From: Patescibacteria group bacterium | GTDB lineage: Bacteria; Patescibacteriota; Gracilibacteria; UBA1369; PNNO01 | Assembly: GCA_024275695.1 (NCBI GenBank) | Contig: JAJRYP010000065.1 | Coordinates: 1-34,300, forward strand | Reading direction: 5' to 3' | DNA length: 34,300 bases | Part shown: positions 5,745-34,086 of the stretch, one piece after another | Numbering within the stretch: position 1 is the stretch's first letter | Layout: each line of letters opens with the position of its first letter | Made by a program: the position numbers and the translations under genes | The notes under the pieces: model-generated | Database searches by the model: none | What the model was told of the DNA's origin: nothing | What the model saw: only the letters and a program-made list of their open reading frames with translations

Positions 5745-5785
5745 CCGTCTTTTTTTGGTCTTATCATTATCTGAATTGCGGCACC

Positions 5786-8193: not shown

Positions 8194-8278
8194 ATTAATA
8201 GTTATAATTAATAATTAACAGTAACATATTCTACTGATACTCGTTTATCTTCGCAACAAAACTCTTAACGATTAGTAC

Positions 8279-14514: not shown

Positions 14515-14521
14515 ATCGAGA

Positions 14522-15043: not shown

Positions 15044-15097
15044 AGTGAAAATTTAGTGCTACTTAGAGTGTACATTTTTGATTGTAAGATGTCAAAA

Positions 15098-15122
15098 GGA
15101 AAAAATAGCCTCCCATGGGGGC
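15098..15122 (-). terminator. Candidate intrinsic terminator downstream of nadC
   Basis: On the minus strand, the GC-rich hairpin GCCCCCATGGGAGGC (one C.A mismatch) is followed by TATTTTTTCC. It is the only GC-rich patch in this AT-rich spacer. Confidence 0.4.
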
Positions 15123-15199
15123 GGAATTGACTTAATGTTCCAAAATTATTTTGCCCCTTCATTATATGACACGCTCATGTACACTCACGCTTCATAATT

Positions 15200-16183: not shown

Positions 16184-16220
16184 GCTAATATTGGTTCCCA
16201 AGCTACATTATTTTTATATC

Positions 16221-17297: not shown

Positions 17298-17818
17298 CTT
17301 TGTTTTTCTTTAACAAAACGCATCCAAAGATCTTTAATTAGATCCGTTGTCGCGTGCGCAAGAGAAGCAAGCAGCTCGCGGAGTTTTCTTAGTTGCGCCG
17401 TCAAAATATTAAGTTGATGTGCTTCCACGGTACCTTTTTTATTCATCACTTTTTTAATTTTTTTATGCAGGCTTTTAATTTCTTTTTTTAATTCACGTTG
17501 AACTTGTGATTTCATTATTTTTGTTGCCGGTAGAGGTTGAAAAGTTGCTGCGGCGGATTGGTTTTGAGTAGTAGCCGCACCGGTTCCGGCATATTGATCT
17601 TTTGCTTTTGATTCTTTTTCGCTCACTTTGTCCGGCGAAATCTCAGCCGCTTCGGCACCTTCTGCTGTTTCAAGTCCACCCAAGTCCACGGAAACCTTTG
17701 CTTTCTCGACTTCTTCTTTTTCCATTTTACGAACTTGCGGCTTTTCGGCCGTTTTAACTTGTTCTTTCCCTGATTCCGGGTTAACTCCCATTTTGTTATC
17801 TGTATCTGCCATATACAT
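17294..17818 (-). CDS. Hypothetical protein with a low-complexity acidic/Ala-rich N-terminus and a basic coiled-coil C-terminus
   Basis: 174-aa ORF with no recognisable domain. Its stop overlaps the nadA stop in CTAG (17294-17297). Confidence 0.45.
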   Translation of the reverse strand: MYMADTDNKMGVNPESGKEQVKTAEKPQVRKMEKEEVEKAKVSVDLGGLETAEGAEAAEISPDKVSEKESKAKDQYAGTGAATTQNQSAAATFQPLPATKIMKSQVQRELKKEIKSLHKKIKKVMNKKGTVEAHQLNILTAQLRKLRELLASLAHATTDLIKDLWMRFVKEKQS

Positions 17819-17957
17819 AATTAGAATTTCTTTATATTATACTAAGAAAACGGATTTGAGTCAATTTGGCAGACTTAACTTAAGCATTTATAAATTGCAG
17901 TTTGTATGGTATAAAAAATGCTGTATATCCTGTTAACGATTATAACCAAACCTCCAC

Positions 17958-20585
17958 GTGAAAGAAATAGCAAAAGCTTATACTCCTCAAAAATACGAAA
18001 ATTCTATTTATAAAAAATGGGAAGATTCGGGAGTGTTTACACCCGAAATAGATCCGAACAAAAAATCATTTACAATATCGATGCCGCCTCCAAATGCGAC
18101 GGTAACGCTACATTTGGGGCACGCTACAATGCTTGCAATTGAAGATCTAATGATTCGATATAAAAGAATGCAGGGGTTTTCGGCTTTATGGTTACCGGGA
18201 ACCGACCATGCCGCAATCGCCACTCAAAACAGGGTAGAAAAAAATCTTGCGGAAAAGGGGATTGATCGCCATAAACTAGGAAGGAAAAAATTTTTGGAAG
18301 AGGTTGGAAAATTTGTTGAAAAATCACGTGATACAATCAGGAAACAAATAAGGAAAATGGGATCAAGTTGCGATTGGAGCCGTGAAAGATTTACTCTCGA
18401 TGAAGGATTAACAAAAGCTGTACGTGAAGTTTTTACCAGAATGTATAATGATGATCTGATTTATAAAGGAGATCGAATAGTTAACTGGTGTCCGCGTTGT
18501 GAATCGACACTTGCGGATGATGAAGTTGAATATAAAGAAAAGCAGGAGAAGCTTTATTGGATTAAATATGGTCCATTTACATTAGCTACAACACGTCCCG
18601 AAACAAAACTCGGAGACACGGCCGTCGCGGTTCATCCGGATGATGAAAGATACAAAGATATGGTTGGGAAGAAATATATGATTCCCGGTGTTCTTGGTGA
18701 ATTTGAAGTGATTGTTGTTGCCGACAAGGAAGTTGATCCGCAGTTTGGATCGGGGGCCATAAAAGTTACTCCCGCACATAGTTTTACGGATTTTGAAATT
18801 GCGGAAAGGCATAACATTCCTTTGAAATCCGTTATTAACGAACAGGGGAAAATGATGGATAATTGCGGGAAGTACGCCGGAATGACAACAGAAGAGTGCC
18901 GTAAGGAAATTGTAAAAGATATGGATAAAATGGGACTTATAGAAAAAATTGAAGATTTTACTCATAATCTTTCAGTCTGTTACAGATGTAAAACTGCGGT
19001 AGAGCCGCTTGTTTCCAAACAATGGTTTATTGCTGTTGATAAACCGGTAATTCAAGATGGTGACAAAAAGATTTCAATAAAGGAAAAAGCCCTGAAAGTC
19101 GTTAGAGAAGGGGATATAAAAATCGTTCCTGATCGATTTAATAAAACATATTCTCACTGGATGGAGAATTTACATGATTGGTGTATTTCCAGACAAATAT
19201 GGTATGGTCATCAAATACCGGTTTGGTATTGCCGTGATTGCAATGAAGAAATAGTTCAAACGGATGATCCAGAAAGTTGTCGAAAATGTAAAAGTAAAAA
19301 TATAAAACAGGACTTGGATACTTTGGACACCTGGTTTTCATCCGGACTTTGGACTTTTTCGACATTAGGTTGGCCGAAAAAAACCGAAGATTTGAAGTAT
19401 TTTCACCCTACTGCGGTTATGGAGACAGGATACGATATCCTGTTTTTCTGGATTGCGCGCATGATTATTATGACAACTTATGCTCTCAACGAAATTCCTT
19501 TCGAGACTGTATATTTGCATGGACTAATTCGTACTCGAAGTGGAAAAAAAATGTCGAAGTCAGATCCGTCAACCTGTATAGATCCTCTTGAAATGATTGA
19601 TAAATATGGAACCGATGCCTTGCGATTAAGTTTTCTTATCGGATCGACACCCGGAAATGATATGCGTTTATACGAAGAAAAAATCGCCGGATACAGGAAT
19701 TTTGTTAATAAAATTTGGAACGCTGCAAGATTTTCTCTAATGAATATTAAAGAAGAAAATCTGGATGAAGTTTTTGATCCTAAAAGGCATATAAATTCAC
19801 GCGCCGATAAATGGATTCTTACAAAATTGCAATATCTGGTGAAAGACGTAACAAAGGATATTGAAAAGTTTAGATTTTCCGATGCCGGAACAAAAATCTA
19901 CAATTTCACCTGGTCCGAATATTGCGATTGGTATGTTGAGTTAAGTAAAGGTCAGCATTTGAATCCGCATGTTTTAGTACATGTTCTAAAATCTGTTCTT
20001 AGATTGCTGCATCCTTTTGTACCTTTCTTTACCGAAGTATTATGGGAAAATCTTCATGAAAAAAAGATGCTTATCGAAGAGACATGGCCTGAATATGATA
20101 AATCATTGGTGTTTGTGAAAGAAGTTGAAGAAATGGAGCTGTTGCACCAAATTATTTCGGATATTCGAAAAATGAGAGCCAACTACGGTGTAGAGCCGGC
20201 TAAAAAGATTCATGCCGTTATTTATGCTGGTAAATATAAAGACTTTTTAGAAGAAAAACGTGAGCCACTTACGAGAATGGCTCGTCTGGAGAATCTTGAG
20301 ATTTTCGATAAAGGAGAAAAAATTGAAAAAGCTGTTTGTTTATTTGTAGGCGATTTGGAAATTTATTTACCCTTGCATGAGTTGGTTGATATTGAGAAAG
20401 AGCAAAAAAGACTTGAGAAAGAGCTTGAAAATCTTGTTCAATTTGAAAAGACTTTATCTTCAAAACTACAGAACAAAAAATTTGTTCAAAATGCACCGGA
20501 AGATGTAGTAGAAAAAGAAAAAAAGAGGTTGAAAGAAACCAGGAGCGGGATTAAGAAGATTGAGGAGAAACTTAGCGAGTTATAA
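17958..20585 (+). CDS. valS: Valine--tRNA ligase
   Basis: 875 aa. HIGH-type motif (TLHLGHA), KMSKS motif (KKMSKSD), and a C-terminal coiled coil. The start is apparently GTG. Confidence 0.95.
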   Translation: MKEIAKAYTPQKYENSIYKKWEDSGVFTPEIDPNKKSFTISMPPPNATVTLHLGHATMLAIEDLMIRYKRMQGFSALWLPGTDHAAIATQNRVEKNLAEKGIDRHKLGRKKFLEEVGKFVEKSRDTIRKQIRKMGSSCDWSRERFTLDEGLTKAVREVFTRMYNDDLIYKGDRIVNWCPRCESTLADDEVEYKEKQEKLYWIKYGPFTLATTRPETKLGDTAVAVHPDDERYKDMVGKKYMIPGVLGEFEVIVVADKEVDPQFGSGAIKVTPAHSFTDFEIAERHNIPLKSVINEQGKMMDNCGKYAGMTTEECRKEIVKDMDKMGLIEKIEDFTHNLSVCYRCKTAVEPLVSKQWFIAVDKPVIQDGDKKISIKEKALKVVREGDIKIVPDRFNKTYSHWMENLHDWCISRQIWYGHQIPVWYCRDCNEEIVQTDDPESCRKCKSKNIKQDLDTLDTWFSSGLWTFSTLGWPKKTEDLKYFHPTAVMETGYDILFFWIARMIIMTTYALNEIPFETVYLHGLIRTRSGKKMSKSDPSTCIDPLEMIDKYGTDALRLSFLIGSTPGNDMRLYEEKIAGYRNFVNKIWNAARFSLMNIKEENLDEVFDPKRHINSRADKWILTKLQYLVKDVTKDIEKFRFSDAGTKIYNFTWSEYCDWYVELSKGQHLNPHVLVHVLKSVLRLLHPFVPFFTEVLWENLHEKKMLIEETWPEYDKSLVFVKEVEEMELLHQIISDIRKMRANYGVEPAKKIHAVIYAGKYKDFLEEKREPLTRMARLENLEIFDKGEKIEKAVCLFVGDLEIYLPLHELVDIEKEQKRLEKELENLVQFEKTLSSKLQNKKFVQNAPEDVVEKEKKRLKETRSGIKKIEEKLSEL

Positions 20586-21601: not shown

Positions 21602-22678
21602 CTACTTTTTTTTAAGTTTGTACTGTTCACGACCAACTCTTTCGAATTGTGGCTTATTCTTGAGATTTAAAATAATAGTTATCTTTTTAACCTGTCTCTG
21701 TTTCATTACTTCTTTAATAATATCCTCTTGTGATTTAAGTTTGCCGTCTTTAAGAATATCTTCAATGATGTCTGCAACAGTTCCTTCTTTATATCCCCAT
21801 TCTTTAAGAGCATAAATTCCTCTACCAACAAGTACGAACTGATCGTGTCTGATCAGCTCATTGTGAACCGCTTGTAAATTAATACGTTTATTGTCGAATT
21901 GAAGTTCAGTGATTTTATTAACAATTTCCACAAAGTGAAGAGGTTTTTTATTCTTGTTTAATACATAATAAATCTTGTCGCGAAGCGTTTTTGGATTAAT
22001 ATGTCTCCAACTTGCCAAGCCGATACCACCTTCCACCGGCTTAAGTCTCTTATCAAGTGTAAATGTTGATATAACTTGCGGAAGATTACTGTGATCGAGC
22101 TCTTTAAAATGTTTACGCAGTTCATCAAAAATTTTACTGTGAGTGTAAATATCGGATTTTTTACTCAAAATATCAATTGTTTTCTCGGTAATATCTTTTA
22201 TATAAGTATGATCAATATTGGCATATTTGATATATGGGTGATAATTAATAGTGTTTGGAGTTCTTACAAGTTCTTTATCCAGTGTAAGTGAAAGATTGAT
22301 TGCGTTTTTATTAATTTCTACGTCATTTTTATTTAAAATATTAATTAGTTCCGCAAATAGATTTTCTTCCGTCATTATCCCTCCTTTTTCCTTTAAGATT
22401 TCCTTAATGAATTCATTGAGTGCATTAAGATCCGTATTCCCAACGTTTCTTTGTAATTTTGTAAGTGCGTTTTTTTCAATTTGTCTGATTCTTTCTCGAG
22501 TGACATTAAACTCTTTTCCTATCTCTTCAAGTGTTGCTCTATAAGTATTATCCAGATTAAATCGTCTTTTAATTACATGTTTTTCCTTTTGTGAAAGCAG
22601 TATCAGGAGGTCCTGTACTATTTTTTGAGCATTTTGAAATGTTCTTACAGGTGTCTTTTTGATATCCATAGAAAGCAC
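21602..22678 (-). CDS. Sigma-70 region 4-only protein with C-terminal HARE-HTH-like domains (paralog 2)
   Basis: 358 aa with the same architecture as 13087..14181: LSQKEKHVIKRRFNL...ATLEEIGKEFNVTRERIRQIEKNALTKLQR, and C-terminal PLHFVEIVNKI...AVHNELIRHDQFVLVGRGIYALKEWGYKEGTVADII. Confidence 0.7.
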   Translation of the reverse strand: MLSMDIKKTPVRTFQNAQKIVQDLLILLSQKEKHVIKRRFNLDNTYRATLEEIGKEFNVTRERIRQIEKNALTKLQRNVGNTDLNALNEFIKEILKEKGGIMTEENLFAELINILNKNDVEINKNAINLSLTLDKELVRTPNTINYHPYIKYANIDHTYIKDITEKTIDILSKKSDIYTHSKIFDELRKHFKELDHSNLPQVISTFTLDKRLKPVEGGIGLASWRHINPKTLRDKIYYVLNKNKKPLHFVEIVNKITELQFDNKRINLQAVHNELIRHDQFVLVGRGIYALKEWGYKEGTVADIIEDILKDGKLKSQEDIIKEVMKQRQVKKITIILNLKNKPQFERVGREQYKLKKK

Positions 22679-22791: not shown

Positions 22792-23478
22792 TTAATTCAA
22801 GCTTTTCGACATAGAATGCATACGGTAGCCTATGCAATAAACGGTTTCTATAAGTCGCATTTTGGGATTGTAGTCGATTTTTTTACGAAGTGTGTTTATA
22901 TGAACATCGACAGTATGAGTAAATAAATTTGCATTTCTGTCCCAAACATTTTCAAGTATCTTTTGTCTACTTAAGATAACGTCGGTATTGCTCATAAGAT
23001 ACTCTAAAAGTTGGAATTCTTTATTTCTTAAATAAAGTTTTTGTTCAAATCTCTCAACCTCTCTTGTTTGAAGATTTAATGTGAGATCTGCAACTTTAAG
23101 AGTTTGTTTGTTTTTGAAAGATTGTTTTTGAAGAAGATATTTTTTGATCTCAAATGCCAGAGCTCTTACAGTGATTGATTCGGGATAAACATATAATGGA
23201 AGGCTTATATTAGGTGTAAGAAGATCTAATGTAGATTTGTTTGCAACAATAAAAAAAGGACAATTACGCGGCACTTTTTGAATTTTTTCGAGTTGTATTG
23301 ACGGTAAATGAATTTTCGATGGGAATTTACACACAACCGCATCGAATTGCTTTAACAAATATTCATCGTCCCAATTATCGTAAAATGACTTGGCTTCACT
23401 CTGAATATTTTCATATTTAAGCCCGCGGGATAGAAAAGTAGCCGCCATTGTATGCTCTGCAAGTACAAGAATATACAT
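22792..23478 (-). CDS. OmpR/PhoB-family winged-helix regulator with a degenerate (pseudo-)receiver domain
   Basis: 228 aa. The C-terminal trans_reg_C pattern is present (LTLNLQTREVERFEQKLYLRNKEFQLLEYLM...ILSRQKILENVWD...VDVHINTLRKKID...IETVYCIGYRM). The N-terminal receiver-like fold lacks the acidic pair (ILVLAEH) and the phospho-acceptor Asp (DAVVCKF). Confidence 0.75.
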   Translation of the reverse strand: MYILVLAEHTMAATFLSRGLKYENIQSEAKSFYDNWDDEYLLKQFDAVVCKFPSKIHLPSIQLEKIQKVPRNCPFFIVANKSTLDLLTPNISLPLYVYPESITVRALAFEIKKYLLQKQSFKNKQTLKVADLTLNLQTREVERFEQKLYLRNKEFQLLEYLMSNTDVILSRQKILENVWDRNANLFTHTVDVHINTLRKKIDYNPKMRLIETVYCIGYRMHSMSKSLN

Positions 23479-23618
23479 AACAACATGATAAAAATAATAA
23501 GGAAAATAATGATAATGAATTTTATGGATTAAGTAGGCTTACTTCTATAAATTTCCCTTTTAAATAATGAAAATAAGGTTAAAATTGTGCTGTAACTATT
23601 TCAACAACAATTTATTAA

Positions 23619-24650
23619 ATGATTGAATTAAACGAACTGCGGACATTGTTGGTAGAAAACGGAATTCCTTCCTATAGGGCCAATCAGGTTATGCACGCGG
23701 TTTATAAAGAAGGAAAAATCAATTATAGTAATATGACGGTTTTGCCTTCATTCGTAAAAGAATTCTTTGAAATGAATCTTCCGATTTTTTCAATTGAGAA
23801 AGTACGGGAAAGCATTTCATCAAGTGGGAATACGCATAAAACTCTATTTAGATTACATGACGGGAAAAAAATAGAAGCGGTTTTAATGCGCTTCAAAGAT
23901 GGGAGGAAGACGGTCTGCGTTTCAAGTCAAGTTGGATGTACATTAAAATGTAAATTTTGTGCAACCGGAAAAGGCGGTTTTAAGCGCAATCTCACTTATG
24001 AAGAAATTACGGATCAGGTTTTATATTTTCAAAATTTACTCAAAGATGAAGATTCACATGTTGGGAATGTTGTATTCATGGGGATGGGCGAACCGTTTCT
24101 GAACTATGACAATGTCATAAAATCAATATCGATTTTAAACGACCCGATCACTTTCAATATCGGTCTACGAAATATAACAGTATCAACATCCGGAATTATT
24201 CCGCAAATTAAACAGTTTGCCGATGATGCGAGGCAAGTAAAGCTCGCTATCAGCCTACATGCTCCAAACGATAAAATTCGAACTTCAATTATGCCTATTG
24301 CTAAAAAATATCCATTAAAAGAATTAATGTTAACTTGTAAAGAATATACGGAAAAAACGCATAGAAGAATTTCGTATGAATACGTAATGCTTAGAGGTAT
24401 TAATGATTCCGATTCCAACGCTCACGAACTTTCAAAGCTGCTTCATGAACAGCTGTGTCATGTAAATCTGATACCGTACAATGAAACAAACGTTAAAGGA
24501 ATGAAAGGATCAACAAAAAATCGTACGGAACAATTTAAAAAAATACTCGAGCTGCATAAGATTCCCGTAACGGTTCGCATCAGTCTTGGAAAAGATATAA
24601 AAGCCGCATGCGGGCAATTGGCGGGAAAATCCTCTTGCAATTTAGGTTAA
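23619..24650 (+). CDS. rlmN: 23S rRNA/tRNA adenine-C2 methyltransferase RlmN (radical SAM)
   Basis: 343 aa. Radical-SAM CxxxCxxC motif (GCTLKCKFCATG), MGMGEP, and a C-terminal conserved Cys (AACGQL). Confidence 0.9.
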   Translation: MIELNELRTLLVENGIPSYRANQVMHAVYKEGKINYSNMTVLPSFVKEFFEMNLPIFSIEKVRESISSSGNTHKTLFRLHDGKKIEAVLMRFKDGRKTVCVSSQVGCTLKCKFCATGKGGFKRNLTYEEITDQVLYFQNLLKDEDSHVGNVVFMGMGEPFLNYDNVIKSISILNDPITFNIGLRNITVSTSGIIPQIKQFADDARQVKLAISLHAPNDKIRTSIMPIAKKYPLKELMLTCKEYTEKTHRRISYEYVMLRGINDSDSNAHELSKLLHEQLCHVNLIPYNETNVKGMKGSTKNRTEQFKKILELHKIPVTVRISLGKDIKAACGQLAGKSSCNLG

Positions 24651-24695
24651 TAAGGAGAAGCATATAAGTATATTTAATTACTAACCAATTTAATT

Positions 24696-24956
24696 ATGGC
24701 TGATGAACAACAAAAGCGTAAAATTCAAGTTAAATTCGATTCGGATCAGGAAGCCGGCGTTTACAGTAACGCAATTTCCGTACATCTGAAAAAAAATGAA
24801 GTTGTAATGGATTTTGGATATATTATCCCAAATGTTGATCCGACCACAATTAAAGTTGTAAGCAGAATCAATGTGACTCACGAAACAGCGGAAAGTTTTT
24901 TAAAGGTTCTCTCAAATGCAGTTCTGGATTGGAAGAATAAACAGAAAAAAGCATGA
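24696..24956 (+). CDS. DUF3467-like small protein
   Basis: 86 aa. The pattern GVYSNAISVHLKKNEVVMDFGYI...KVVSRINVTHETAESFLKVL matches my recollection of DUF3467. There is a 4-nt ATGA overlap with dtd. Confidence 0.55.
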   Translation: MADEQQKRKIQVKFDSDQEAGVYSNAISVHLKKNEVVMDFGYIIPNVDPTTIKVVSRINVTHETAESFLKVLSNAVLDWKNKQKKA

Positions 24957-25405
24957 AAGCACTCATTCAGAAAGTAAAAGAAGCATCGGTTGTTGTTGAT
25001 GGAAAAATAACAGGAGCCATTGAAAACGGGATTTTAATATTTCTGGGAATAACGCACGAAGATGGATCTAAAGAAATAGAAGGTCTCGTTGATAAAATCG
25101 TTAATTTAAGAATTTTCGAAAACGATGGTAAGCGGATGGATCTTTCCGTAAAAGATCTCGGAGGAGAATTACTGATAGTTTCTCAATTTACTTTATATGG
25201 CAGTTTGAAAAAAGGAAGACGTCCGGATTTCGGTGAGGCGGCAAATCCGGAGAAAGCCAAAGAACTTTACGATTTATTTACTTTCGAGTGTCGAAAAACA
25301 GAGTTAAAGGTTGAGACGGGTGAGTTTGGCGCAATGATGGAGGTATCGCTTATTAACAACGGACCTGTTACTTTTTTACTTGATAGCAAGGATTTGTTAA
25401 AATAG
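24953..25405 (+). CDS. dtd: D-aminoacyl-tRNA deacylase
   Basis: 150 aa. MKALIQKV...ILIFLGI...SQFTLYG...NNGPVT motifs. Confidence 0.9.
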   Translation: MKALIQKVKEASVVVDGKITGAIENGILIFLGITHEDGSKEIEGLVDKIVNLRIFENDGKRMDLSVKDLGGELLIVSQFTLYGSLKKGRRPDFGEAANPEKAKELYDLFTFECRKTELKVETGEFGAMMEVSLINNGPVTFLLDSKDLLK

Positions 25406-25432
25406 CATTCGTTTAGACTTTAATTTTTAAAT

Positions 25433-26824
25433 ATGGCGCAAAATAAGCAAGATTTGATGGAGAAGGTAGTTTCACTTTGTAAGCGTAGGGGATTTGTATT
25501 TCATGGATCGGAGATTTATGGAGGACTCGCAAATACATGGGATTTGGGGCCGCTTGGCGTTGAACTTAAAAATAATGTCCTTAGAGCATGGTGGAAATTT
25601 TTTGTTCACGGTCGTCGTGACATTGTGGGGATTGATGCCGCTATATTAATGAATCCTAAAGTTTGGAAGGCTTCAGGGCATGTAGATAGCTTTAATGATG
25701 CTCAAATCGATTGCAAAGAATGTAAAAAACGATTTCGGGCCGATCATTTAATTGAAGATGCGCTTAAAGATGTAAAAGTTGAAGGTTTAAGCACCGATGA
25801 CTTAAAAAAACTGATTGATGAAAACGATATTAAATGTCCTAATTGCGGTGCGCAAAATTTCACGGACGTTAGAACATTCAACTTATTGTTTCAAACTCAT
25901 ATCGGACCGGTTGCAAACGATACGGATCCCATTTTTTTGAGAGGTGAAATTGCCCAAGGTATGTTTGTAAACTTTAAAAACGTACTTGATACATCACGCA
26001 AAAAAATTCCTTTTGGGATCGCTTCGGCCGGGAAAGCTTTCAGAAATGAAATTACTCCCGGCAACTTCATTTTCCGAACTCTTGAGTTCGACTTAATGGA
26101 ATTTGAATATTTTATTAAAGAAGATATGTGGAAGGAGAAGTTTGATTATTGGCTTGAGGAAATGCATAAATGGTTGGAAATTGTTGGGATAAATAAAGAA
26201 AATACACGTGTTAGGCAACATACCGATGATGAACTTTCTCATTATTCAAAGAAAACGGTTGATATAGAATATAAAACACCGTTCGGATGGAAAGAGCTTT
26301 ACGGTCTTGCATATCGAACGGATTTTGATTTGCGAAATCATATTGAAAAAAGCGGAGCCGATTTGAATTATTTCGATCAAACAACAGGCGAAAAATATAT
26401 TCCTCATGTTATAGAGCCTACATTCGGATTAAGCCGCACGTTACTTATGGTTTTACTTGATGCATACGATGAAGAAGACGTTAAAGATGCAAAAGGCAGC
26501 AAAGAAACTCGTATTGTACTACGATTAAAACCGGAAATCGCACCATTTAGAGCCGCAATTTTACCCCTTATGAAAAAACCGGAATTGGTCGAAAAAGCGG
26601 ATGAAGTATTTGGCTTACTCAAAGATGAATTTGCTTTAGACTTTGATATTACCGGAAGTATTGGTAAACGATACAGACGTCAAGACGAGATTGGGACCCC
26701 GTATGCAATTACGATCGATTACGATACTCTGGATGACAATTCGGTTACTGTTCGAGATAGGGATACATTGAAACAGGATAGGGTGAAGATTTCCGAACTG
26801 GTACCTATATTAAGAGGAAAATAG
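25433..26824 (+). CDS. glyQS: Glycine--tRNA ligase (alpha2 homodimeric type)
   Basis: 463 aa. [34 protein letters not shown]-terminus, class II motifs, and a C-terminal anticodon-binding domain. Confidence 0.95.
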
Positions 26825-26877
26825 AAATTTACGAAAATTTTATACTTTTTTTACAAGCTTATGTTATTTGATTATGC

Positions 26878-27531
26878 ATGAGTTTGCTTCCACGTGAAAA
26901 ATTACAACTACATGGTCCTAAACAATTAAATAATAGCGATTTGATTGCTATTATTCTCGGACACGCGACCAGAAAGGAAAATGTTTTCGATTTAAGTAAA
27001 AGAATTTTAAAAGAGTATGGATCGTTGCCGCTTCAATCGATACAGAATGTGACAGAATGCCAAAAATTATTCGAAATAGGACAGGTCCAGGCATCCAAAA
27101 TTGTCGCGTGTTTTGAAATCGGCAGACGTTTTTTTTCAAAAAATCATATAAAAAACAAACTTAACAATGCCAATAACGTATTCTCGCATGTAAAAGATAT
27201 GTTGGATCTTCGTAAAGAATATATTCGCGGACTTTATTTGAACACGAGACATGAATTAATTTACGATGAAGTTTTGTCTATCGGTACTCTTGAAAGCACA
27301 TCTTTGCATCCTCGGGAAGTATTTTATCCTGCAATTCAAAGATATGCATATACTTTTATACTGGTGCATAATCACCCTTCGGGAAATCCCGAACCAAGTA
27401 AGGATGATTTTTATTTAACCCGGGAGATAGTTAAAGCGGGGGATTTGTTTAGAATTCCTCTTCTCGATCATGTTATCGTATCTAAAAACGGATATTACAG
27501 TTTTCAGGAAAACGGAACCCTTTCACCTTGA
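26878..27531 (+). CDS. radC: RadC-like JAB/MPN-domain protein
   Basis: 217 aa. JAMM motif HNHPSGNPEPSKDD and an N-terminal helix-hairpin-helix-like region. Confidence 0.85.
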   Translation: MSLLPREKLQLHGPKQLNNSDLIAIILGHATRKENVFDLSKRILKEYGSLPLQSIQNVTECQKLFEIGQVQASKIVACFEIGRRFFSKNHIKNKLNNANNVFSHVKDMLDLRKEYIRGLYLNTRHELIYDEVLSIGTLESTSLHPREVFYPAIQRYAYTFILVHNHPSGNPEPSKDDFYLTREIVKAGDLFRIPLLDHVIVSKNGYYSFQENGTLSP

Positions 27532-27590
27532 ATTTTTGCCTTATTTTTGCTAAAATATATAGATTATAAATATAAAAACAAAAAATAAAC

Positions 27591-30128
27591 ATGTGGGATT
27601 ATATTCTGCAGCATCCGCTTAGAACACTTGTAATAGTTGTTGTACTTGTAAGTTTATACAGATACACGGTCTGGCTTTTTCGCTATTTTATACAACTTTA
27701 TTATGCGAAAAAGCTTACATATATGAGAATAACACTTCCTCGTGAAGACACTCAAAAAGATAAAGACAAGCAAGTTGAAAAAGATTTTCGTGAAAAAATA
27801 GGCGTGATGGATCAATTTTATAGAAATATACATGAAATTCGTGAACTTTCATTCAAAAATCGTATTCGCAATTTCTTTTTAAATCTGGACGTTGTTTCTT
27901 TTGAAATGGTCGCGATGAGCAAAGAGGTAAATTTTTATGTGGTAACTTACCCTTTTTATCAAAATATTATTGAAAAACAAATTACATCGTATTATCCGGA
28001 TGCCGATATTCAGATGACAGAAGCTTACGTGGTTGATCCTCCCGGAAATAAGCAAAGATGCTTTTATGCTTACCTGAACAGAGAAAATTGGTATCCAATT
28101 AAAACATACAAAAAAATTGAGAACGATCCGTTAAACGATATGACAAACGTTCTTTCCAAACTTGGTGATGATGACAAGGCGGTTTTTCAGTTTGTTATAA
28201 GTCCGCGTTCAGACAGGTGGAGAAAAAAAGCCGAACGAATGGGAACAAAACTTTTCTTAAATAAACTCGGGAAAGGTTGGGTTCCGAGAATTCCGATAAT
28301 CGGGACTTTACTTAACTGGATATTTAGCATTTTTACCGGTATTGCATTTGGATACGATCGTATGAAGAAACAAGCCCCAAACACGGGCGCCCCGGAAGGA
28401 AGCCAATATGTACGTATGCTTCAAACTAAAGAGGAAGTGGCAAAAATGATTGGTGAAAAAGCCAGTCAGGTTGGTTTTGACGTAAGTGTTAGGGTTATTG
28501 CGTCGTCAAAAACTCGCGGGGATGCCTACAGACTCGGAAACAATATGATTTTGGCATTGAATCTTTTTAAAGATGCCGCAATGAATTGGTTTCAGACCAA
28601 AAGGTTATTTTTTCTCGATTCAATCAATAATAAAATTATGCTTCATGCTTTTAAAAATAGATTACATAATTTCAAACCGCTACCGTTTTTCGGAGAAAAA
28701 GAATCAATAATGGTTCCGGAAGAACTTGCAGCTTTGTATCATTTCCCAAATAGTAGATATAATTACACGCCGGTTATTAAATGGCTCAAATATAAAGTTG
28801 TGCCGGCTCCTGTTAATACTCCGCAGGAAGGAGTTTATCTGGGTGATAATGTATATCGGGGAGTTCGAAAAAAAGTCCATATACTTAGGCAAGATCGAAC
28901 AAGACATCAATATATAATCGGAAAATCCGGTGCAGGTAAATCCGTATTCATCAGTTTTATGGCAAGACAGGATATTAGGAATGGTGATGGAGTTTGCGTT
29001 ATCGATCCACATGGTGATCTTATTGAAGACATCTTGACTTATATTCCTAAAGAAAGGGCAAAAGATGTAATCGTTTTTAACCCTTCCGATCAGCAGCGAC
29101 CAATGGGGCTTAATATTCTGGAAGCCGATACGCCCGAACAACAAGATCTTGCTTCAAGTCAGGCTACCGAGATTTTCATTAAATTGTTTGGTGACGAAAT
29201 ATTCGGACCGCGCATTCAACACTATTTTAGAAATGCTTGTTTAACACTAATGGAGGACAAAGAGGAAGGAGCGACTTTGATTGATGTCCCTCGAATGTTT
29301 GTTGATGACGATTTTATGAAATACAAAGTGAAAAAAGTCAGAAATCCGGTTGTGCGTTCATTTTGGGAACATGAATATGCTCATACGGGGGAGAGGGAAC
29401 GTCAAGAAATGATTCCGTATTTTTCTTCTAAATTCGGTCCGTTTATCACAAATTCTATAATGCGTAATACCATCGGACAAACAAAATCCGCATTCAATTT
29501 TCGTGAAGTCATGGATAATCAAAAAATACTCCTTATCAATCTTTCCAAAGGTAAGATCGGCGATTTAAACACACAGCTTTTAGGACTGGTTGTAGTTGCG
29601 AGAATCCAAATGGCCGCGATGAGTCGCGCAGATATGCCGGAAGATCAACGTAAGGATTTTTATTTATATGTAGATGAGTTCCAGAACTTTGCGACAGACA
29701 GCTTCTGTTCGATTCTGTCCGAAGCCCGGAAATATCATTTAGCCTTAATTATGGCGCATCAATATATTAAACAGCTTGAAAAGAAGCAAGACACATCTAT
29801 CCGTGATGCGGTGTTTGGTAACGTAGGAACAATGATGTCATTTAAAGTTGGCGCGGATGATGCCGAATATATGGCAAAAGAATACGCTCCTGTTTTAACC
29901 GAAGCAGATGTACTTGGGATCGCAAACTACAAAGCATATATTAAACTAAACATCAAAAATACAACATCAAGACCTTTCTCTCTTGAAACTATTTACGATA
30001 CAACCGGCAAAAACAAGAAAGTTGCTGAAATCGTGAAAGAATATTCGAGAATGAAATACGGACGAAAGAAAGAATTCGTTAATCAGGAAATTGCAGCGCG
30101 AATCGGTATTGACCTAAGTTCGGAATGA
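27591..30128 (+). CDS. Membrane-anchored TraD/VirD4/HerA-like P-loop ATPase, full-length paralog
   Basis: 845 aa. TM1 is LRTLVIVVVLVSLYRYTVWLF. It is followed by a roughly 150-aa domain shared with ORF 5786..6358, then a second hydrophobic segment (IPIIGTLLNWIFSIFTGIAFGY). Walker A IIGKSGAGKSV, Walker B FYLYVDEFQNF, and AHQYIKQLE. Confidence 0.8.
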   Translation: MWDYILQHPLRTLVIVVVLVSLYRYTVWLFRYFIQLYYAKKLTYMRITLPREDTQKDKDKQVEKDFREKIGVMDQFYRNIHEIRELSFKNRIRNFFLNLDVVSFEMVAMSKEVNFYVVTYPFYQNIIEKQITSYYPDADIQMTEAYVVDPPGNKQRCFYAYLNRENWYPIKTYKKIENDPLNDMTNVLSKLGDDDKAVFQFVISPRSDRWRKKAERMGTKLFLNKLGKGWVPRIPIIGTLLNWIFSIFTGIAFGYDRMKKQAPNTGAPEGSQYVRMLQTKEEVAKMIGEKASQVGFDVSVRVIASSKTRGDAYRLGNNMILALNLFKDAAMNWFQTKRLFFLDSINNKIMLHAFKNRLHNFKPLPFFGEKESIMVPEELAALYHFPNSRYNYTPVIKWLKYKVVPAPVNTPQEGVYLGDNVYRGVRKKVHILRQDRTRHQYIIGKSGAGKSVFISFMARQDIRNGDGVCVIDPHGDLIEDILTYIPKERAKDVIVFNPSDQQRPMGLNILEADTPEQQDLASSQATEIFIKLFGDEIFGPRIQHYFRNACLTLMEDKEEGATLIDVPRMFVDDDFMKYKVKKVRNPVVRSFWEHEYAHTGERERQEMIPYFSSKFGPFITNSIMRNTIGQTKSAFNFREVMDNQKILLINLSKGKIGDLNTQLLGLVVVARIQMAAMSRADMPEDQRKDFYLYVDEFQNFATDSFCSILSEARKYHLALIMAHQYIKQLEKKQDTSIRDAVFGNVGTMMSFKVGADDAEYMAKEYAPVLTEADVLGIANYKAYIKLNIKNTTSRPFSLETIYDTTGKNKKVAEIVKEYSRMKYGRKKEFVNQEIAARIGIDLSSE

Positions 30129-31309
30129 GAACATTAAATACACAAAAACTTGTCGAACACGTAAGAAATACAAAAATACTTTTGTATTCGCTTATTTTTG
30201 CGTTAGTTGTCGGAATGCTCGGACTTGGAAGCGGGATAAGAAATCTATATGGAGAAATTGTAACAAAGGACTATCAAATTTCCGTCTTAACTGAAGAAGT
30301 TGGAAAACTTAAAGAAGAAAATACATACATATATCAAGATCTATTAAAAAATAGAGACTTCCTAACAAAAAGTATCAAAACAATAGAAAATTCGTTTACC
30401 GGATATATCGAAGGAAATGAATCGGAGAAGAACAAAATGCACGCGACTTTTACGCAAGTTCAGAATGATTTAAATACACTTTTAAATGAAAAAGAATTTG
30501 CAATAGCAAATTTGCGAGAACGAAACGAACGTTTAACGGAAGAAATAAAATTTCAAGTATATTCGGAAGATGTGGAAAACATTTTAATAATCGGAAAAAA
30601 TCAAAACCTTACAGACACAATTATTCTCGCAAGTGTAAATCCTTCGCTTGAAACAATAACATTAATCAGCATTCCGCGTGATTTATACGTTAACGGGAGA
30701 AAAATTAATTCAATTTATGCTTCGTATGGAATTGATAAATTTAAAAGAGATATACAAATGATAACCGGTCTGAATATAGAAAAATATGTAATTTTTGATT
30801 TTGCGGCCTTTGAAAAAATCATAGATATATTGGGTGGAATAGACTTGTATGTTCGCAACGATATTTACGATAACAGATTTCCGACAGTGAATAATGGATA
30901 TACAGTCTACTTGATTGAGAAAGGTTCGCATCATTTTAATGGCAAAGATGCTTTAAACTACGCGCGTAGCAGGAAATCTACGTCCGATTTTGACAGAAGC
31001 AAACGTCAACATCAGGTTATTCAGGCAGTTCGCGTAAAACTAAAAATGTTGGATATTCTTGCCGATTTGGATAAAGCCATAGAAATTTTTGAAACTGTGG
31101 CCGGCGGTGTTGATACAAACATTGGTGCGTTCGAAGCACTTTACTATATGAACAATTATCAAAATTATGTTATTGAAAGCGGCAATATAATAAGTACAGA
31201 GAACTTTTTATATTCTTCCACATCGGTTGACGGTCAATATATTCTTTTACCGAAAACAGGAGATTATTATCAGATAAAGCAGTATGTATCGAATTTGATT
31301 AAAGAGTAG
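30125..31309 (+). CDS. LytR-CpsA-Psr (LCP) family cell-wall glycopolymer ligase with TM anchor and coiled-coil stalk
   Basis: 394 aa. TM segment ILLYSLIFALVVGMLGLG, a coiled coil, and LCP core motifs (TDTIILASV...LISIPRDLYV...INSIYASYG...YARSRKSTSDFDRSKRQ). There is a 4-nt ATGA overlap with the upstream ATPase gene. Confidence 0.85.
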   Translation: MRTLNTQKLVEHVRNTKILLYSLIFALVVGMLGLGSGIRNLYGEIVTKDYQISVLTEEVGKLKEENTYIYQDLLKNRDFLTKSIKTIENSFTGYIEGNESEKNKMHATFTQVQNDLNTLLNEKEFAIANLRERNERLTEEIKFQVYSEDVENILIIGKNQNLTDTIILASVNPSLETITLISIPRDLYVNGRKINSIYASYGIDKFKRDIQMITGLNIEKYVIFDFAAFEKIIDILGGIDLYVRNDIYDNRFPTVNNGYTVYLIEKGSHHFNGKDALNYARSRKSTSDFDRSKRQHQVIQAVRVKLKMLDILADLDKAIEIFETVAGGVDTNIGAFEALYYMNNYQNYVIESGNIISTENFLYSSTSVDGQYILLPKTGDYYQIKQYVSNLIKE

Positions 31310-31358
31310 GATTCATGCATAATTGAATATGAAATAATCATGTTAACTATCTTTATTC

Positions 31359-31976
31359 ATGAAAAAAATATTTCTACTTTCATTTGCCACTCTTATTTTT
31401 ATATCCGGATGTAACGGAAGTGACGTTGATATAAATGAAAACATCCAGGTTCCTTCCGATATCGATATTACATATACAAAAGGAAATGCAAATGCGTCCG
31501 TAACAATTACGGAATATAGTGATTACCAATGTCCGTTTTGCGCCCGTTTAACGCTCGAAATACTTCCTTTGATTCAAAACGACTACATTGAGACGGGAAA
31601 GATTCTATTTGTGTATAAAGACTTGCCGCTTCCAAATCATAAGTATGCTCAAAAAGCCAGTGAGGCGACATATTGCGCGGGTGAACAAAATGAAGATAAG
31701 TTTTGGGAAATGCATGTGAAAATATTTGAAAATCAGAAAAACATAAGGCGAGAAGACTTATCGAAATACGCTGAAGAAGTTGGATTAAATGTGCAGGCTT
31801 TCGACAGTTGTCTTGATAGCGACAAATATAAAAATCTTGTCTTACGAAACAGACAGGACGGTTTGAAGGCCGGTGTGGAAGGAACTCCGACATTATTTGT
31901 AAACGATGTGCCACTCGTTGGATTGCCTCAATATGAAGCTTTAAAACAAGTTATTGAAACCGAGCTTAGGAAGTAA
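31359..31976 (+). CDS. DsbA/thioredoxin-fold thiol:disulfide oxidoreductase, probable lipoprotein
   Basis: 205 aa. Lipobox-like LIFISGC and the CPFC active site (YSDYQCPFCARL). Confidence 0.85.
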   Translation: MKKIFLLSFATLIFISGCNGSDVDINENIQVPSDIDITYTKGNANASVTITEYSDYQCPFCARLTLEILPLIQNDYIETGKILFVYKDLPLPNHKYAQKASEATYCAGEQNEDKFWEMHVKIFENQKNIRREDLSKYAEEVGLNVQAFDSCLDSDKYKNLVLRNRQDGLKAGVEGTPTLFVNDVPLVGLPQYEALKQVIETELRK

Positions 31977-31983
31977 ATTGTAA

Positions 31984-32060
31984 TGGTGGCAGGGGTGGGG
32001 ATCGAACCCACGACCTCGGGCTTATGAGTCCCGCGCTCTAACCAACTGAGCTACCCTGCC
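31984..32060 (-). tRNA. tRNA with CAU anticodon, elongator type (Met, or Ile2 if lysidine-modified)
   Basis: The reverse complement is GGCAGGGTAGCTCAGTTGGTTAGAGCGCGGGACTCATAAGCCCGAGGTCGTGGGTTCGATCCCCACCCCTGCCACCA. G1:C72 is paired, so it is not an initiator. The anticodon loop is CTCATAA, and there is an A31/G39 mismatch at the bottom of the anticodon stem. Confidence 0.85.
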
Positions 32061-32116
32061 GTATGCGAAGTTTATTCTAAAAGCAGCACACAATAAGTGC
32101 AAGCTTTTTTCAAAAA

Positions 32117-32866
32117 TTAAAAAGTTTTTATGTTGAAATTAAATAAAACTCTTGCCGGCACAACCAGATTTGGATTATTTGGCGGAATTTTTTCCAATTG
32201 TGGCGGGCTATGCATGGGTTCAAAATAATAATCTTTTCCTTCACGATAAATTCGTTTTACACCTAAATCGCCTTTATACAAAATAGCAAACAATTTTCCA
32301 CTGTTATCTTCAATATCATTATTTTTAATTGGTTCAAGAATAATAATATCACCTAAATAAATTCCGAATTCGGGATAATCTCTTATGAAAATTCGGACTG
32401 CAACAAGTTCTTCAAGCGGTTTATGATAATGCAGATAATTTCTCATATATGATCTGGAAGCATAAATAAAATTATTGGAAACCTTTCTTAATTCATATAG
32501 TTGATCGAATGTTTTATTTCGTAGTTTCGTATTATCGAGTAGGGGAATCGCAGCAACATCATCCTGGAAATCTCTACTAATATCTCGTTCAATTAAAGAA
32601 ACTAACTTGTCCCATTTTTTTGCTTTGTCAACATAAGAAAGTAGACCGGGTTTGTTTTCCCCAAGAAAATAACCTACCGGCTTTTTAAGATATTCCGCTA
32701 TTTTCATTAACTCGGAAATTTTTGGAAGATATCGTCCCTTTGTAATATTGGAAACATATGCACGTGATTTTTGAATCATTTGAGCTAATTCGATTTGTGA
32801 AACACCGCGTTCCGTAAGGGCGGCCTTGATTCGTTCCGCAATAAGTTTAGTAAATTTTTCATCCAT
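32117..32866 (-). CDS. XRE-family HTH repressor with C-terminal S24/LexA-like (CI-like) domain lacking the catalytic Ser
   Basis: 249 aa. N-terminal HTH (GVSQIELAQMIQKSRAYVSNITKGRYLP). The C-terminus aligns with the LexA/CI beta-barrel (VAVRIFIRDYPEFGIYLGDIIIL...GKLFAILYKGDLGVKRIY...FEP). The G-x-S-M Ser position is replaced (IRDY), the Lys of VKR is retained, and there is no Ala-Gly cleavage site. Confidence 0.7.
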   Translation of the reverse strand: MDEKFTKLIAERIKAALTERGVSQIELAQMIQKSRAYVSNITKGRYLPKISELMKIAEYLKKPVGYFLGENKPGLLSYVDKAKKWDKLVSLIERDISRDFQDDVAAIPLLDNTKLRNKTFDQLYELRKVSNNFIYASRSYMRNYLHYHKPLEELVAVRIFIRDYPEFGIYLGDIIILEPIKNNDIEDNSGKLFAILYKGDLGVKRIYREGKDYYFEPMHSPPQLEKIPPNNPNLVVPARVLFNFNIKTF

Positions 32867-33097: not shown

Positions 33098-33235
33098 TTA
33101 TGAAGTTTTTTTATTCAAAATTACCTTTTTAGCTTTACCAAAAACTAATGCTGAATATAACCATTTTAATTTGATTTCCGGTTTGCTGTATTTGTCTCTT
33201 TTTAGTTTTTCAACATCTATATCTGCTTTTTTCAT
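33098..33235 (-). CDS. 45-codon ORF translationally coupled to the nucleotidyltransferase gene
   Basis: Too short for the supplied track. The ATG overlaps the upstream TGA (ATGA at 33235-33232). Translation: MKKADIDVEKLKRDKYSKPEIKLKWLYSALVFGKAKKVILNKKTS. The terminator lies about 50 nt downstream. It could instead be a frameshifted C-terminal extension of the NTase, because A6 runs flank the junction. Confidence 0.35.
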   Translation of the reverse strand: MKKADIDVEKLKRDKYSKPEIKLKWLYSALVFGKAKKVILNKKTS

Positions 33236-33720
33236 AATTTTTTGAGTTTTAATAAAGCTTCCAAATCTAACATATCTTTATTTCTTTTCGTTGCCTTCTT
33301 CATTTTAATTAAATCATCAATACTTACAACCGGTAATTCCATATCCCAAACTTTAATAATAGTTTTTTTCTTATCATAATCTTTAAAATGTGAAGATTCT
33401 TTTACAATTATATCAATATCAAGTTGAGGCTGAGTATTTGATATATACGTGTAGGCCTTTAGCCCTTTTTTCTTAACAAACTCATCTAGTTTTGCCTTGT
33501 TTCCCAACTCTTTAATATTTACCGGAATTCTTTCTACATAATCTAGTTTACGCATTAATTTATCCATTTTTGCTAGATTTACAGGATTTAATGCTAGTAA
33601 AATATCTATATCACCTGTAAAACGAGCGTAACCATAAAGGTTAACCGCAACTCCGCCAACAATTAAATAGTTGATTTTAGCTTCTTCGAGTTCTTTGAAG
33701 ATTTTTTTGTATAGATTCAT
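33232..33720 (-). CDS. Minimal pol-beta-fold nucleotidyltransferase (DUF2204/DUF6036/AbiEii-like family)
   Basis: 162 aa. NTase signature GGVAVNLYGYARFTGDIDIL (G-G-x11-D-x-D), a third acidic residue in LDIDIIV, and a C-terminal SIDDLIKMKKATKRNKDMLDLEAL motif common in this group. Confidence 0.65.
   Translation of the reverse strand: MNLYKKIFKELEEAKINYLIVGGVAVNLYGYARFTGDIDILLALNPVNLAKMDKLMRKLDYVERIPVNIKELGNKAKLDEFVKKKGLKAYTYISNTQPQLDIDIIVKESSHFKDYDKKKTIIKVWDMELPVVSIDDLIKMKKATKRNKDMLDLEALLKLKKL

Positions 33721-34011: not shown

Positions 34012-34086
<75 letters not shown>

Follow-up and report, generated by a model that had tools for sequence, protein, structure and literature searches.

A stand-alone coupling-protein-like ATPase of a Patescibacteria contig belongs to a widespread family related to coupling proteins of monoderm conjugation-type plasmids

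Patescibacteria make up much of bacterial diversity and rely on other cells, and their type IV secretion system (T4SS) is essential for epibiotic growth in the single system tested. The stretch of DNA analyzed here (the window) is 34.3 kb long and constitutes the whole of one metagenome-assembled contig (JAJRYP010000065.1) of a Patescibacteria group bacterium. It encodes an 845-amino-acid (aa) ATPase, ATPase A (positions 27591 to 30128, + strand), which was identified as similar to type IV coupling proteins (T4CPs) by its open reading frame (ORF), Pfam, AlphaFold2 (AF2), and Foldseek and is followed directly by a gene of the LytR-CpsA-Psr (LCP) family. With a probability of roughly 70%, ATPase A is a domesticated coupling-type ATPase, one of two chromosomal paralogs, and its adjacency to LCP, DsbA-like, and RadC genes is synteny of its lineage and not part of a machine. 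Three results are new. The family of ATPase A shows full-length homology to a relaxase-adjacent coupling protein of monoderm conjugation-type plasmids, and its N-terminal half, which contains the domain DUF8128, is predicted to have the fold of the VirB4 N-terminal domain behind a single transmembrane (TM) helix with the N terminus outside (N-out). In addition, the neighborhood of its genes varies between classes. For the window itself, the outcome is mostly deflationary, in that the ATPase looks like an ordinary family member and the envelope translocation module proposed in an initial annotation comes down to local synteny.

The C-terminal half of ATPase A is predicted to be a nucleotide-binding domain of the TrwB/VirD4 type with an inserted all-alpha domain. 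The protein scores above the gathering scores of Pfam profiles, curated T4CP profiles among them, with 49.5 bits for TrwB_AAD_bind (residues 431 to 778), 46.4 for T4SS-DNA_transf, 28.8 for TraG-D_C, and 26.7 for DUF87, and both the Walker A and the Walker B motif are intact in its P-loop domain, which is of the FtsK/HerA superfamily. In an alignment of 137 family sequences, 71 columns are invariant. These include G444, G447, G449, and K450 of Walker A (GKSGAGKS, residues 444 to 451; 28920 to 28943, +) and Y693, D695, and E696 of the Walker B region (YLYVDEFQNF, residues 691 to 700; 29661 to 29690, +). Downstream of Walker B lie the conserved motifs SEARKY (residues 710 to 715) and AHQYIKQL (residues 722 to 729; AHQYIKQLE, 722 to 730), in which E711, R713, K714, Q724, and Q728 are invariant, and AHQYIxQL and the other motifs of the catalytic region are invariant or nearly so. 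The motifs GKSGAGKS, YLYVDEFQNF, and AHQYIKQLE are present as quoted in the initial annotation, and the four ORFs of the region and the ATGA overlap between the ATPase and LCP genes lie where it had placed them.

An AF2 model of ATPase A built on the 137-sequence alignment (pLDDT, 90.9; pTM, 0.81) agrees with these assignments. According to its secondary structure, an all-alpha insert occupies residues ~505 to 645 (29103 to 29525, +) of the nucleotide-binding domain, with eight helices (residues 515 to 642) between core strands, and its predicted position matches that of the all-alpha domain of coupling proteins. A Foldseek comparison aligned the full-length model with TrwB over ~440 columns (TM score normalized to TrwB, 0.63 to 0.69; E value, ~1e-11), giving a TrwB-like predicted fold, and also retrieved Cag-beta and HerA (E value for HerA, 1e-11); the top matches by E value were full-length TrwK/VirB4 chains (~940 columns; E value, 9e-14). 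The best sequence match in the PDB was TrwB when the single sequence was used and TrwB followed by DotL when the 137-sequence profile was used. Pfam, PDB, and Foldseek therefore agree with the initial annotation in describing a TraD/VirD4/TrwB-like P-loop ATPase that is anchored in the membrane at its N terminus. The combination of a RecA-like domain carrying an all-alpha insert with an N-terminal membrane anchor is also found in TrwB (R388), VirD4, TraD, DotL, and Cag-beta.

Other members of the superfamily are less similar to ATPase A. HerA has the P-loop core, DUF87, and the Foldseek match in common with it, but the likeness is limited to the ATPase core, since ATPase A has no HAS-barrel and carries a VirB4-like N-terminal domain instead, and no NurA is present in the window. 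The NCBIfam model of CedD, which is involved in archaeal DNA import, matched weakly and at the P-loop only. Unlike FtsK/SpoIIIE, ATPase A has neither an FtsK_SpoIIIE domain nor a gamma (KOPS-binding) domain according to Pfam and NCBIfam, it has a single TM helix rather than several, and the window contains no Xer partner.

The membrane anchor of ATPase A is a conserved N-terminal TM helix at residues ~10 to 39 (27618 to 27707, +), which was recognized by hydropathy and AF2. Its hydrophobic core comprises residues ~5 to 30, with a Kyte-Doolittle peak of 1.97 at residues 12 to 30, and the modeled helix spans residues 9 to 39. Among 130 homologs, the mean number of lysines and arginines per homolog is 0.42 in the 15 residues before the helix and 3.40 after it. 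Because basic residues concentrate after the helix, an N-out/C-in orientation with a cytoplasmic body is indicated, and ATPase A thus appears from its sequence to have a single N-out TM anchor, with the remainder of the protein being cytoplasmic. The initial annotation had listed a second hydrophobic segment. This segment (residues 234 to 252) sits in a disordered, variable, indel-rich linker of low confidence (residues ~225 to 275; pLDDT, <50) and has TM-like hydrophobicity in only 7 of the 137 family members, so that it does not count as a conserved TM helix. A second TM helix at this place, which would put DUF8128 outside the cell, was rejected on the basis of conservation and the positive-inside rule.

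The linker interrupts an N-terminal domain of residues ~40 to 425 (27708 to 28865, +), which was delimited by AF2 and Foldseek and consists of DUF8128 and a middle alpha/beta region. DUF8128 (PF26449) begins the precomputed Pfam domain string, from which it was taken, of ATPase A and of every homolog listed. The domain of unknown function of ~150 aa that had been noted initially is therefore present, but it is Pfam DUF8128 and forms, together with residues ~280 to 420, one larger VirB4-like domain. When residues 1 to 425 were modeled alone (pLDDT, 80.8) and compared with the PDB, the first 14 Foldseek matches were all TrwK/VirB4 (E values, 5e-6 to 1e-3; probabilities, 0.98 to 1.00; ~445 columns), the probability fell to 0.18 at match 15, and TrwB and HerA were absent from the matches. 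The predicted structure thus argues that the N-terminal half of ATPase A folds like the N-terminal domain of VirB4. The topology and fold checks as a whole support a TrwB-like motor and class the N-terminal domain as VirB4-like, but they leave only one conserved TM helix.

The sequence of ATPase A does not carry a VirB4 signature. TIGR00929 scored 21 bits against a cutoff of 643 and matched the P-loop only, the Pfam VirB4 family (CagE_TrbE_VirB) had no match in ATPase A, and no VirB4 chain in the PDB was retrieved by the family profile. An hhalign comparison of the family profile with the VirB4-like ATPase of the Bacillus methanolicus plasmid pBM69 likewise aligned the P-loop only (probability, 5.5%). 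Because the TIGR00929 score is low, no VirB4 chain of the PDB is matched, and only the P-loop aligns with the plasmid VirB4-like protein, ATPase A is not a VirB4 by sequence. It is predicted to share with VirB4 (TrwK of R388) the two-domain layout, the size, and the N-terminal fold, whereas its C-terminal domain is T4CP-like by sequence.

Relatives of ATPase A outside Patescibacteria were found on plasmids. A tblastn search against plasmids returned 352 records, including plasmids of Bacillus, Streptomyces, Staphylococcus, and Clostridium and archaeal plasmids, with identities of 24 to 29% and a query coverage that reaches 85% and takes in most of the N-terminal domain. On pBM69 and on plasmids of Shouchella clausii and Niallia, the homolog, annotated as "DUF87 domain-containing," lies between a primase gene and a gene for a replication-relaxation protein, which is followed by genes for TcpE and other conjugal transfer proteins and for a ~850-aa VirB4-like ATPase. 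On a plasmid of the actinomycete Embleya, whose homolog was matched by tblastn with an E value of 7e-56, the order is PrgI, XF1762 family protein, VirB4-like ATPase, homolog, replication-relaxation protein, and NlpC/P60 hydrolase. The alignment of the family profile with the pBM69 homolog by hhalign had a probability of 100% and an E value of 8e-47 over 669 columns (query, 92 to 808; template, 34 to 734); it takes in the N-terminal domain, and the homology is thus full length. Because of this plasmid homology and the relaxase-adjacent loci, the ATPase family is regarded as the counterpart of a monoderm conjugation-type coupling protein. Profile and structure searches accordingly assign the ATPase to a family whose partners are known, that of the relaxase-adjacent coupling proteins of plasmids, which goes against the separate module proposed at first.

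The plasmid proteins (WP_003349917.1 of pBM69 and WP_331738717.1 of Embleya; annotated as "DUF87 domain-containing" or "type IV secretory system conjugative DNA transfer family") are similar to ATPase A in size (812 to 883 aa) and 24 to 27% identical to it. The Embleya protein resembles ATPase A in its single N-terminal TM helix, after which comes a run of arginines, whereas the Bacillaceae plasmid proteins are without a TM helix. The plasmid genes adjoin those for replication-relaxation proteins, primase, TcpE/PrgI, VirB4-like ATPase, and wall hydrolase, none of which is near ATPase A. The neighbors of ATPase A are RadC and GlyRS on one side and LCP and DsbA on the other, and its locus is not of the conjugation type. 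The link to monoderm bacteria fits the conclusion of Quinonero-Coronel et al. (2025) that the T4SS of Patescibacteria derived from monoderm conjugation machinery (PMC12102498).

Within Patescibacteria, the candidate phyla radiation (CPR), the family is very large. An exhaustive search yielded 21,845 cluster representatives at an E value of <1e-3 and 5,887 at <1e-30, and a word-indexed search yielded 3,915 family matches among 8,000 scored candidates, the best 120 of which were all at least 65% identical to ATPase A. Members from many CPR classes align with ATPase A end to end at 31 to 47% identity and, like it, have PF26449 followed by T4CP domains, a composition referred to here as the DUF8128-T4CP family. 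Orthologs of ATPase A are 65 to 80% identical across many Peregrinibacteria genomes, and the sequences point to strong purifying selection. In the source annotation, the homologs are named [quoted passage not shown] (NCBI naming). A literature search gave no match for "DUF8128," and VirD4, T4CP, and FtsK are all absent from the main text of Wang et al. (2023).

The survey by Quinonero-Coronel et al. (2025), which covered 3,035 genomes of Patescibacteria, found VirB4 in 2,417 genomes (80%) and 5,713 VirD4-type T4CP homologs in 2,918 genomes (96%), about two per genome; only 148 of the 5,713 were near virB4, and relaxases were few (PMC12102498). Its authors state that an exaptation of the VirD4-like T4CP homologs "cannot be ruled out" (PMC12102498), and the initial annotation likewise had known of no established function for the ATPase. 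From their prevalence and annotation, these T4CP homologs are probably the DUF8128-T4CP family. They have the same domain string, a length of ~800 to 870 aa, a chromosomal location, about two copies, and a position apart from virB4 and relaxase genes, and no essential difference from ATPase A was found; an LCP gene directly downstream is a peculiarity of the nearest relatives of ATPase A. The two paralogs in the window agree with the number of copies in the survey. Because of this survey (PMC12102498), the stand-alone coupling-protein-like ATPase is already on record, and ATPase A, judged by its sequence, is an ordinary member of a catalogued Patescibacteria family of predicted function. A coupling-type ATPase that occurs in ~96% of the genomes in two copies and almost never next to T4SS genes ranks among the more conspicuous unassigned motors of these tiny genomes.

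Several variants of the family were observed in addition. Family members of 1,400 to 2,000 aa (P0272 to P0293) carry C-terminal extensions of 600 to 1,200 aa, in which no Pfam domains, and hence no Rosetta-stone clue, were found. In eight loci labeled Gracilibacteria (L016, L018, L030, L033, L037, L042, L072, and L084), the ATPase is intact only under genetic code 25, in which TGA is a sense codon. Several metagenome-assembled genomes bearing the family are labeled Gammaproteobacteria, Bdellovibrionales, Nitrospirota, or Methylomirabilota, and these labels look like mislabeling or misbinning of CPR contigs.

The three genes around ATPase A were identified by Pfam and NCBIfam profiles. RadC (26878 to 27531, +) has the UPF0758 N-terminal domain and a JAB domain with the motif HNHPSG (NF000642, 201 bits versus a cutoff of 180; Pfam RadC, 1e-38). 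The LCP family glycopolymer transferase (30125 to 31309, +) has an N-terminal TM helix visible in the sequence as its membrane anchor, a helical stalk, and the catalytic domain (PF03816, LytR_cpsA_psr, 7e-36, 124 bits; TIGR00350, 107.5 bits versus a cutoff of 62.3), and its start overlaps the stop of the ATPase gene in ATGA at 30125 to 30128. The DsbA/MdbA-like thiol-disulfide oxidoreductase (31359 to 31976, +) is a lipoprotein with the lipobox FISGC and the active site CPFC (Pfam Thioredoxin_4, 9e-36; DSBA, 5e-24); by sequence and Pfam, it has the thioredoxin fold, the CxxC motif, and the lipid anchor of its family, an MdbA-like family of this kind, enriched in CPR, having been described (PMC6744442). 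These genes end a series of eight co-directional genes (23619 to 31976) in the order RlmN-like, DUF3467, Dtd, GlyRS, RadC, ATPase, LCP, and DsbA. A promoter and terminator scan of 23400 to 32300 gave counts not above the shuffled expectation and was uninformative on operon structure.

The neighborhood of the ATPase was tabulated in 80 loci from contigs of one genome per species across CPR classes, to which nine places for close orthologs of A and B were added; ORFs were called with code 25 where needed (eight related loci), and neighbors were identified by Pfam and iterated hidden Markov models. An LCP gene directly follows the ATPase in all nine loci with orthologs of A of at least ~59% identity (the window, L001, L003, L006, L015, L086, L087, L088, and the P0098 place), with a spacing of -24 to +9 nucleotides (nt). 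No LCP gene was present after the ATPase, or within ~8 kb, in the ~13 more distant A-type loci of the same class, the ~14 paralog B loci, or the ~45 loci of other CPR classes. A Pfam scan of the direct neighbors found LCP in 4 of 74 downstream positions, DsbA in 2 of 74 downstream positions, and RadC in 1 of 70 upstream positions. The other two genes vary even among these nine loci. A DsbA gene comes after LCP in three and RadC directly precedes the ATPase in four of them; a CoA-ligase-like gene is inserted between RadC and the ATPase in L087, the ATPase of L001 and that of the P0098 place have no RadC upstream, and elsewhere the positions of RadC or DsbA are taken by CarS, PGA_cap, or other genes. 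The upstream GlyRS gene is as constant in this clade as the downstream LCP gene. Relaxase and T4SS genes were not among the top neighbor families in the 80 related CPR loci.

These results show that the LCP/DsbA/RadC adjacency is not conserved across the family. The pairing is local synteny of one small Peregrinibacteria/Peribacteria lineage, and the distribution of the ATPase-LCP pair fits a single ancestral gene-order event followed by slow rearrangement. Because the gene neighborhood differs from class to class, the pairing is unfit for inferring function. RadC is a housekeeping-type gene variably adjacent to the ATPase, and all three neighbors are ordinary envelope and housekeeping genes. 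ATPase A is vertically inherited in a core-gene context.

In other CPR classes, the ATPase has neighbors of its own. A small charged ORF of ~168 aa overlaps the ATPase start in 16 loci, with a shorter variant of ~136 aa in 7 more, and an ORF of ~213 aa lies downstream of the ATPase in 18 loci and is usually followed by dnaX. Examples flanked by such ORFs occur in L036 to L077 (L040, 7474 to 7956 and 10568 to 11209; L071, 782 to 1288). DnaX is found at positions +1 to +4 in 19 loci, CysRS in 8 loci, and a XerC/D-like integrase family in 6 loci, at least some of them of Microgenomates. The ORFs of 168, 136, and 213 aa had no significant Pfam match and no homolog in the window; they are better partner candidates than LCP or DsbA. 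In some CPR lineages, a divergent second ATPase paralog (858 to 1073 aa) is in tandem or within a few kb (L053, 1128 to 3587 and 3587 to 6163; L067, 7995 to 10367 and 12226 to 15447; L070, 7929 to 10496 and 13630 to 16557), which hints that the tandem paralogs work together.

By analogy with TrwB, VirD4, and the FtsK/HerA superfamily, ATPase A would assemble as a membrane-docked hexameric ring, which would use ATP hydrolysis to deliver a polymer, either DNA or unfolded protein, to a channel in the membrane. This channel would most probably be a relaxase-less chromosomal T4SS encoded elsewhere in the genome, as in most Patescibacteria. Paralogs A and B may act redundantly or together.

Several observations weigh against ATPase A being such a domesticated coupling-type ATPase. 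The 34-kb window holds no T4SS gene, so that the link to a T4SS is inferred, and neither relaxase nor virB4 genes are linked to ATPase A, unlike the genes of classical T4CPs. In Patescibacteria, the family is found in 96% of the genomes and VirB4 in 80% (PMC12102498). ATPase A has one N-out TM helix and a cytoplasmic N-terminal domain of ~380 aa, whereas classical T4CPs are anchored by two TM helices joined by a short external loop and lack that domain, and the NCBIfam equivalog models of TraD/VirD4 score far under their cutoffs (e.g., 51.9 versus 366). In Southlakia epibionticum ML1, the homolog is nonessential while the T4SS genes are essential (PMC12102498), a result that fits redundancy of the two paralogs and a T4SS-independent role alike. 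Finally, the LCP gene is kept in 9 of 9 close orthologs with overlapping or nearly abutting frames while the outer neighbors change, and a functional link specific to the lineage is possible.

The foremost alternative, which we regard as unlikely though worth consideration, is that the family was exapted to a T4SS-independent housekeeping role, e.g., as an FtsK-like membrane DNA translocase acting in segregation, dimer resolution, or DNA uptake or export. The excess of the family over VirB4, its approximately two copies per genome, its rare proximity to virB4 (148 of 5,713), and the nonessential homolog of ML1 (PMC12102498) would all suit such a role, as would the strong purifying selection suggested by 65 to 80% identity across many Peregrinibacteria genomes. 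The neighbors are often informational, with DnaE and AspRS next to paralog B and, in the 19, 8, and 6 loci noted above, DnaX, CysRS, and the XerC/D-like integrase, and no relaxase lies beside the gene in any CPR locus sampled. However, ATPase A has no FtsK_SpoIIIE Pfam match and no gamma/KOPS domain, and a separately annotated ftsK in TM7x (PMC10768705) indicates that FtsK is not obviously missing in CPR. The ML1 result speaks against an indispensable role in segregation unless the paralogs are redundant, any gene passed on vertically in a tiny genome would be expected to have housekeeping neighbors, and the closest full-length homologs outside CPR are conjugation coupling proteins.

A more specific proposal, to which we give a low probability, combines this role with the LCP gene: the DUF8128-T4CP ATPases, which join a VirB4-like N-terminal domain to a T4CP-like motor and are near-universal, two per genome, and scattered away from virB4, would be a Patescibacteria-specific housekeeping membrane translocase and no longer T4SS coupling proteins, and in the Peribacteria lineage paralog A would be functionally and translationally coupled to LCP. 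If this were true, a cytoplasmic ring motor would be linked to wall-polymer attachment or to local opening of the wall.

The proposal of the initial annotation, a dedicated envelope module for DNA or protein translocation tied to wall remodeling and made up of the ATPase, the coupled LCP, and the DsbA-like protein, with RadC, and repeated as a theme at paralog B, is still less probable. The ATGA overlap is real, and the ATPase-LCP adjacency holds in the nine close orthologs even where RadC, DsbA, and the downstream genes differ. In addition, a peptidoglycan (PG)-binding/3D protein follows paralog B in at least six related loci (L004, L020, L021, L022, L026, and L085), and three of the more distant A-type loci have one 1.2 to 1.9 kb before the ATPase. 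Nevertheless, the LCP adjacency is limited to close orthologs, its pattern fits one ancestral gene-order event, GlyRS is an equally constant neighbor, and DUF3467 and Dtd, unrelated genes of the same window, are joined by an identical 4-nt ATGA overlap. Other CPR classes have different conserved neighbors, namely, the small charged ORF, the 213-aa ORF, DnaX, and CysRS. The substrates of LCP and DsbA leave the cytoplasm through Sec or flippases, for which a cytoplasmic ring ATPase is unneeded. T4SS loci normally include a wall hydrolase, and because of this the wall hydrolase next to paralog B speaks for an origin of the T4SS type and not for a new module; the repeated association with wall enzymes noted initially has limited support at the level of the lineage but does not carry the conclusion drawn from it. 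The module survives only as a possible lineage-specific coupling of the ATPase with LCP.

It is very improbable that the genes are part or a decaying remnant of a conjugative or integrative mobile element, since the Firmicutes and Actinobacteria homologs on plasmids in conjugation-type loci, the tRNA-Met right after the DsbA-like gene with HTH repressor-like and AbiEii-like genes beyond it, and an insertion of small ORFs of ~5 kb at that point in a close relative are set against an ATPase that lies within a long co-directional string of core genes (RlmN, Dtd, and GlyRS), syntenic down to 66% protein identity, a GC content the same as in the rest of the window, strongly conserved orthologs, and the lack of any integrase, relaxase, or transfer gene in the window. 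A role in antiphage defense was also considered and rejected; PADLOC gave generic matches to the ATPase core (mad8, 1.4e-13; HerA, 1.7e-5) and none for RadC, LCP, or DsbA.

The second paralog in the window, ATPase B (3894 to 6358, - strand), is 44% identical to A over the full length once repaired. It represents a separate orthologous group as conserved as that of A, whose members are 819 to 828 aa long; the orthologs compared with it are intact at 821 to 826 aa. As initially annotated, it lies beside genes for a 3D/PG-binding protein and an M23 peptidase, but it is broken in this contig. An in-frame TAA is present at 5786 to 5788, where a 94%-identical ortholog (intact, 821 aa) has GAG, and a 1-nt deletion occurs near 5725, ~60 nt further on, leaving ORFs of 190 and 616 aa; the rest of the gene (2.4 kb) is undamaged. 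These lesions could be errors of the assembly, or B could be a pseudogene of very recent origin or a split gene that still functions. The AspRS gene (~6421 to 8220, -) has a similar lesion, an in-frame TAA at 8053 to 8055 in place of the CAA (Gln) of the L085 ortholog, which cuts the N-terminal anticodon-binding domain of ~95 aa off a 503-aa ORF. Because the essential AspRS is damaged in a similar way, true pseudogenization of B is no more likely than assembly or base errors, and the lesions in the two genes together suggest base errors of the assembly or a decaying population. Genetic code 25 or another stop recoding as the cause of the split gene was rejected, since TAA serves as the principal true stop of the window (16 of 28 genes) and no in-frame stops occur in long genes, e.g., that of DnaE.

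The order DnaE, AspRS, ATPase B, PG-binding/3D protein, HD, TsaE, and M23 peptidase is kept around paralog B in relatives. In the window, the PG-binding/3D protein is a secreted 3D-domain protein with four PG_binding_1 repeats and is a putative wall hydrolase (2029 to 3690, -; Pfam PG_binding_1, 1.5e-43), the 3D domain having been detected in orthologous neighbors of paralog B. The M23 peptidase gene runs off the contig end, so that only its N-terminal 306 aa are encoded (5 to 925, -; tblastn with the L085 ortholog, 84% identity over residues 1 to 306).

The window has a GC content of 36% and contains the core genes for DnaE, AspRS, ValRS, GlyRS, RlmN-like protein, Dtd, TsaE, NadA, and NadC, and the closest relatives of its proteins are labeled Peregrinibacteria, Peribacteria, or "Patescibacteria group." As the initial annotation had stated, no VirB4, VirB6, relaxase, or pilin families were found, which was established among the window ORFs of at least 80 aa. 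A tRNA-Met gene (31984 to 32060, -) comes immediately after that of the DsbA-like protein, and a second one is located at 34012 to 34086 (-); between the two are an HTH_3 repressor-like gene and an AbiEii-like nucleotidyltransferase gene (32117 to 32866, -, and 33232 to 33720, -). In L086, a 93%-identical relative, ~5 kb with nine small unannotated ORFs (14262 to 19300) is inserted between the DsbA and HTH genes, and this region could represent a hotspot of integration or a small mobile element. Two paralogous proteins, encoded at 13087 to 14181 (+) and 21602 to 22678 (-), each contain sigma-70 region 4 and a HARE-HTH domain, and the latter is kept in the syntenic block of relatives. A ParE family toxin gene (14522 to 15043, -) abuts an upstream ORF of 82 aa without a Pfam match, which presumably encodes its antitoxin.

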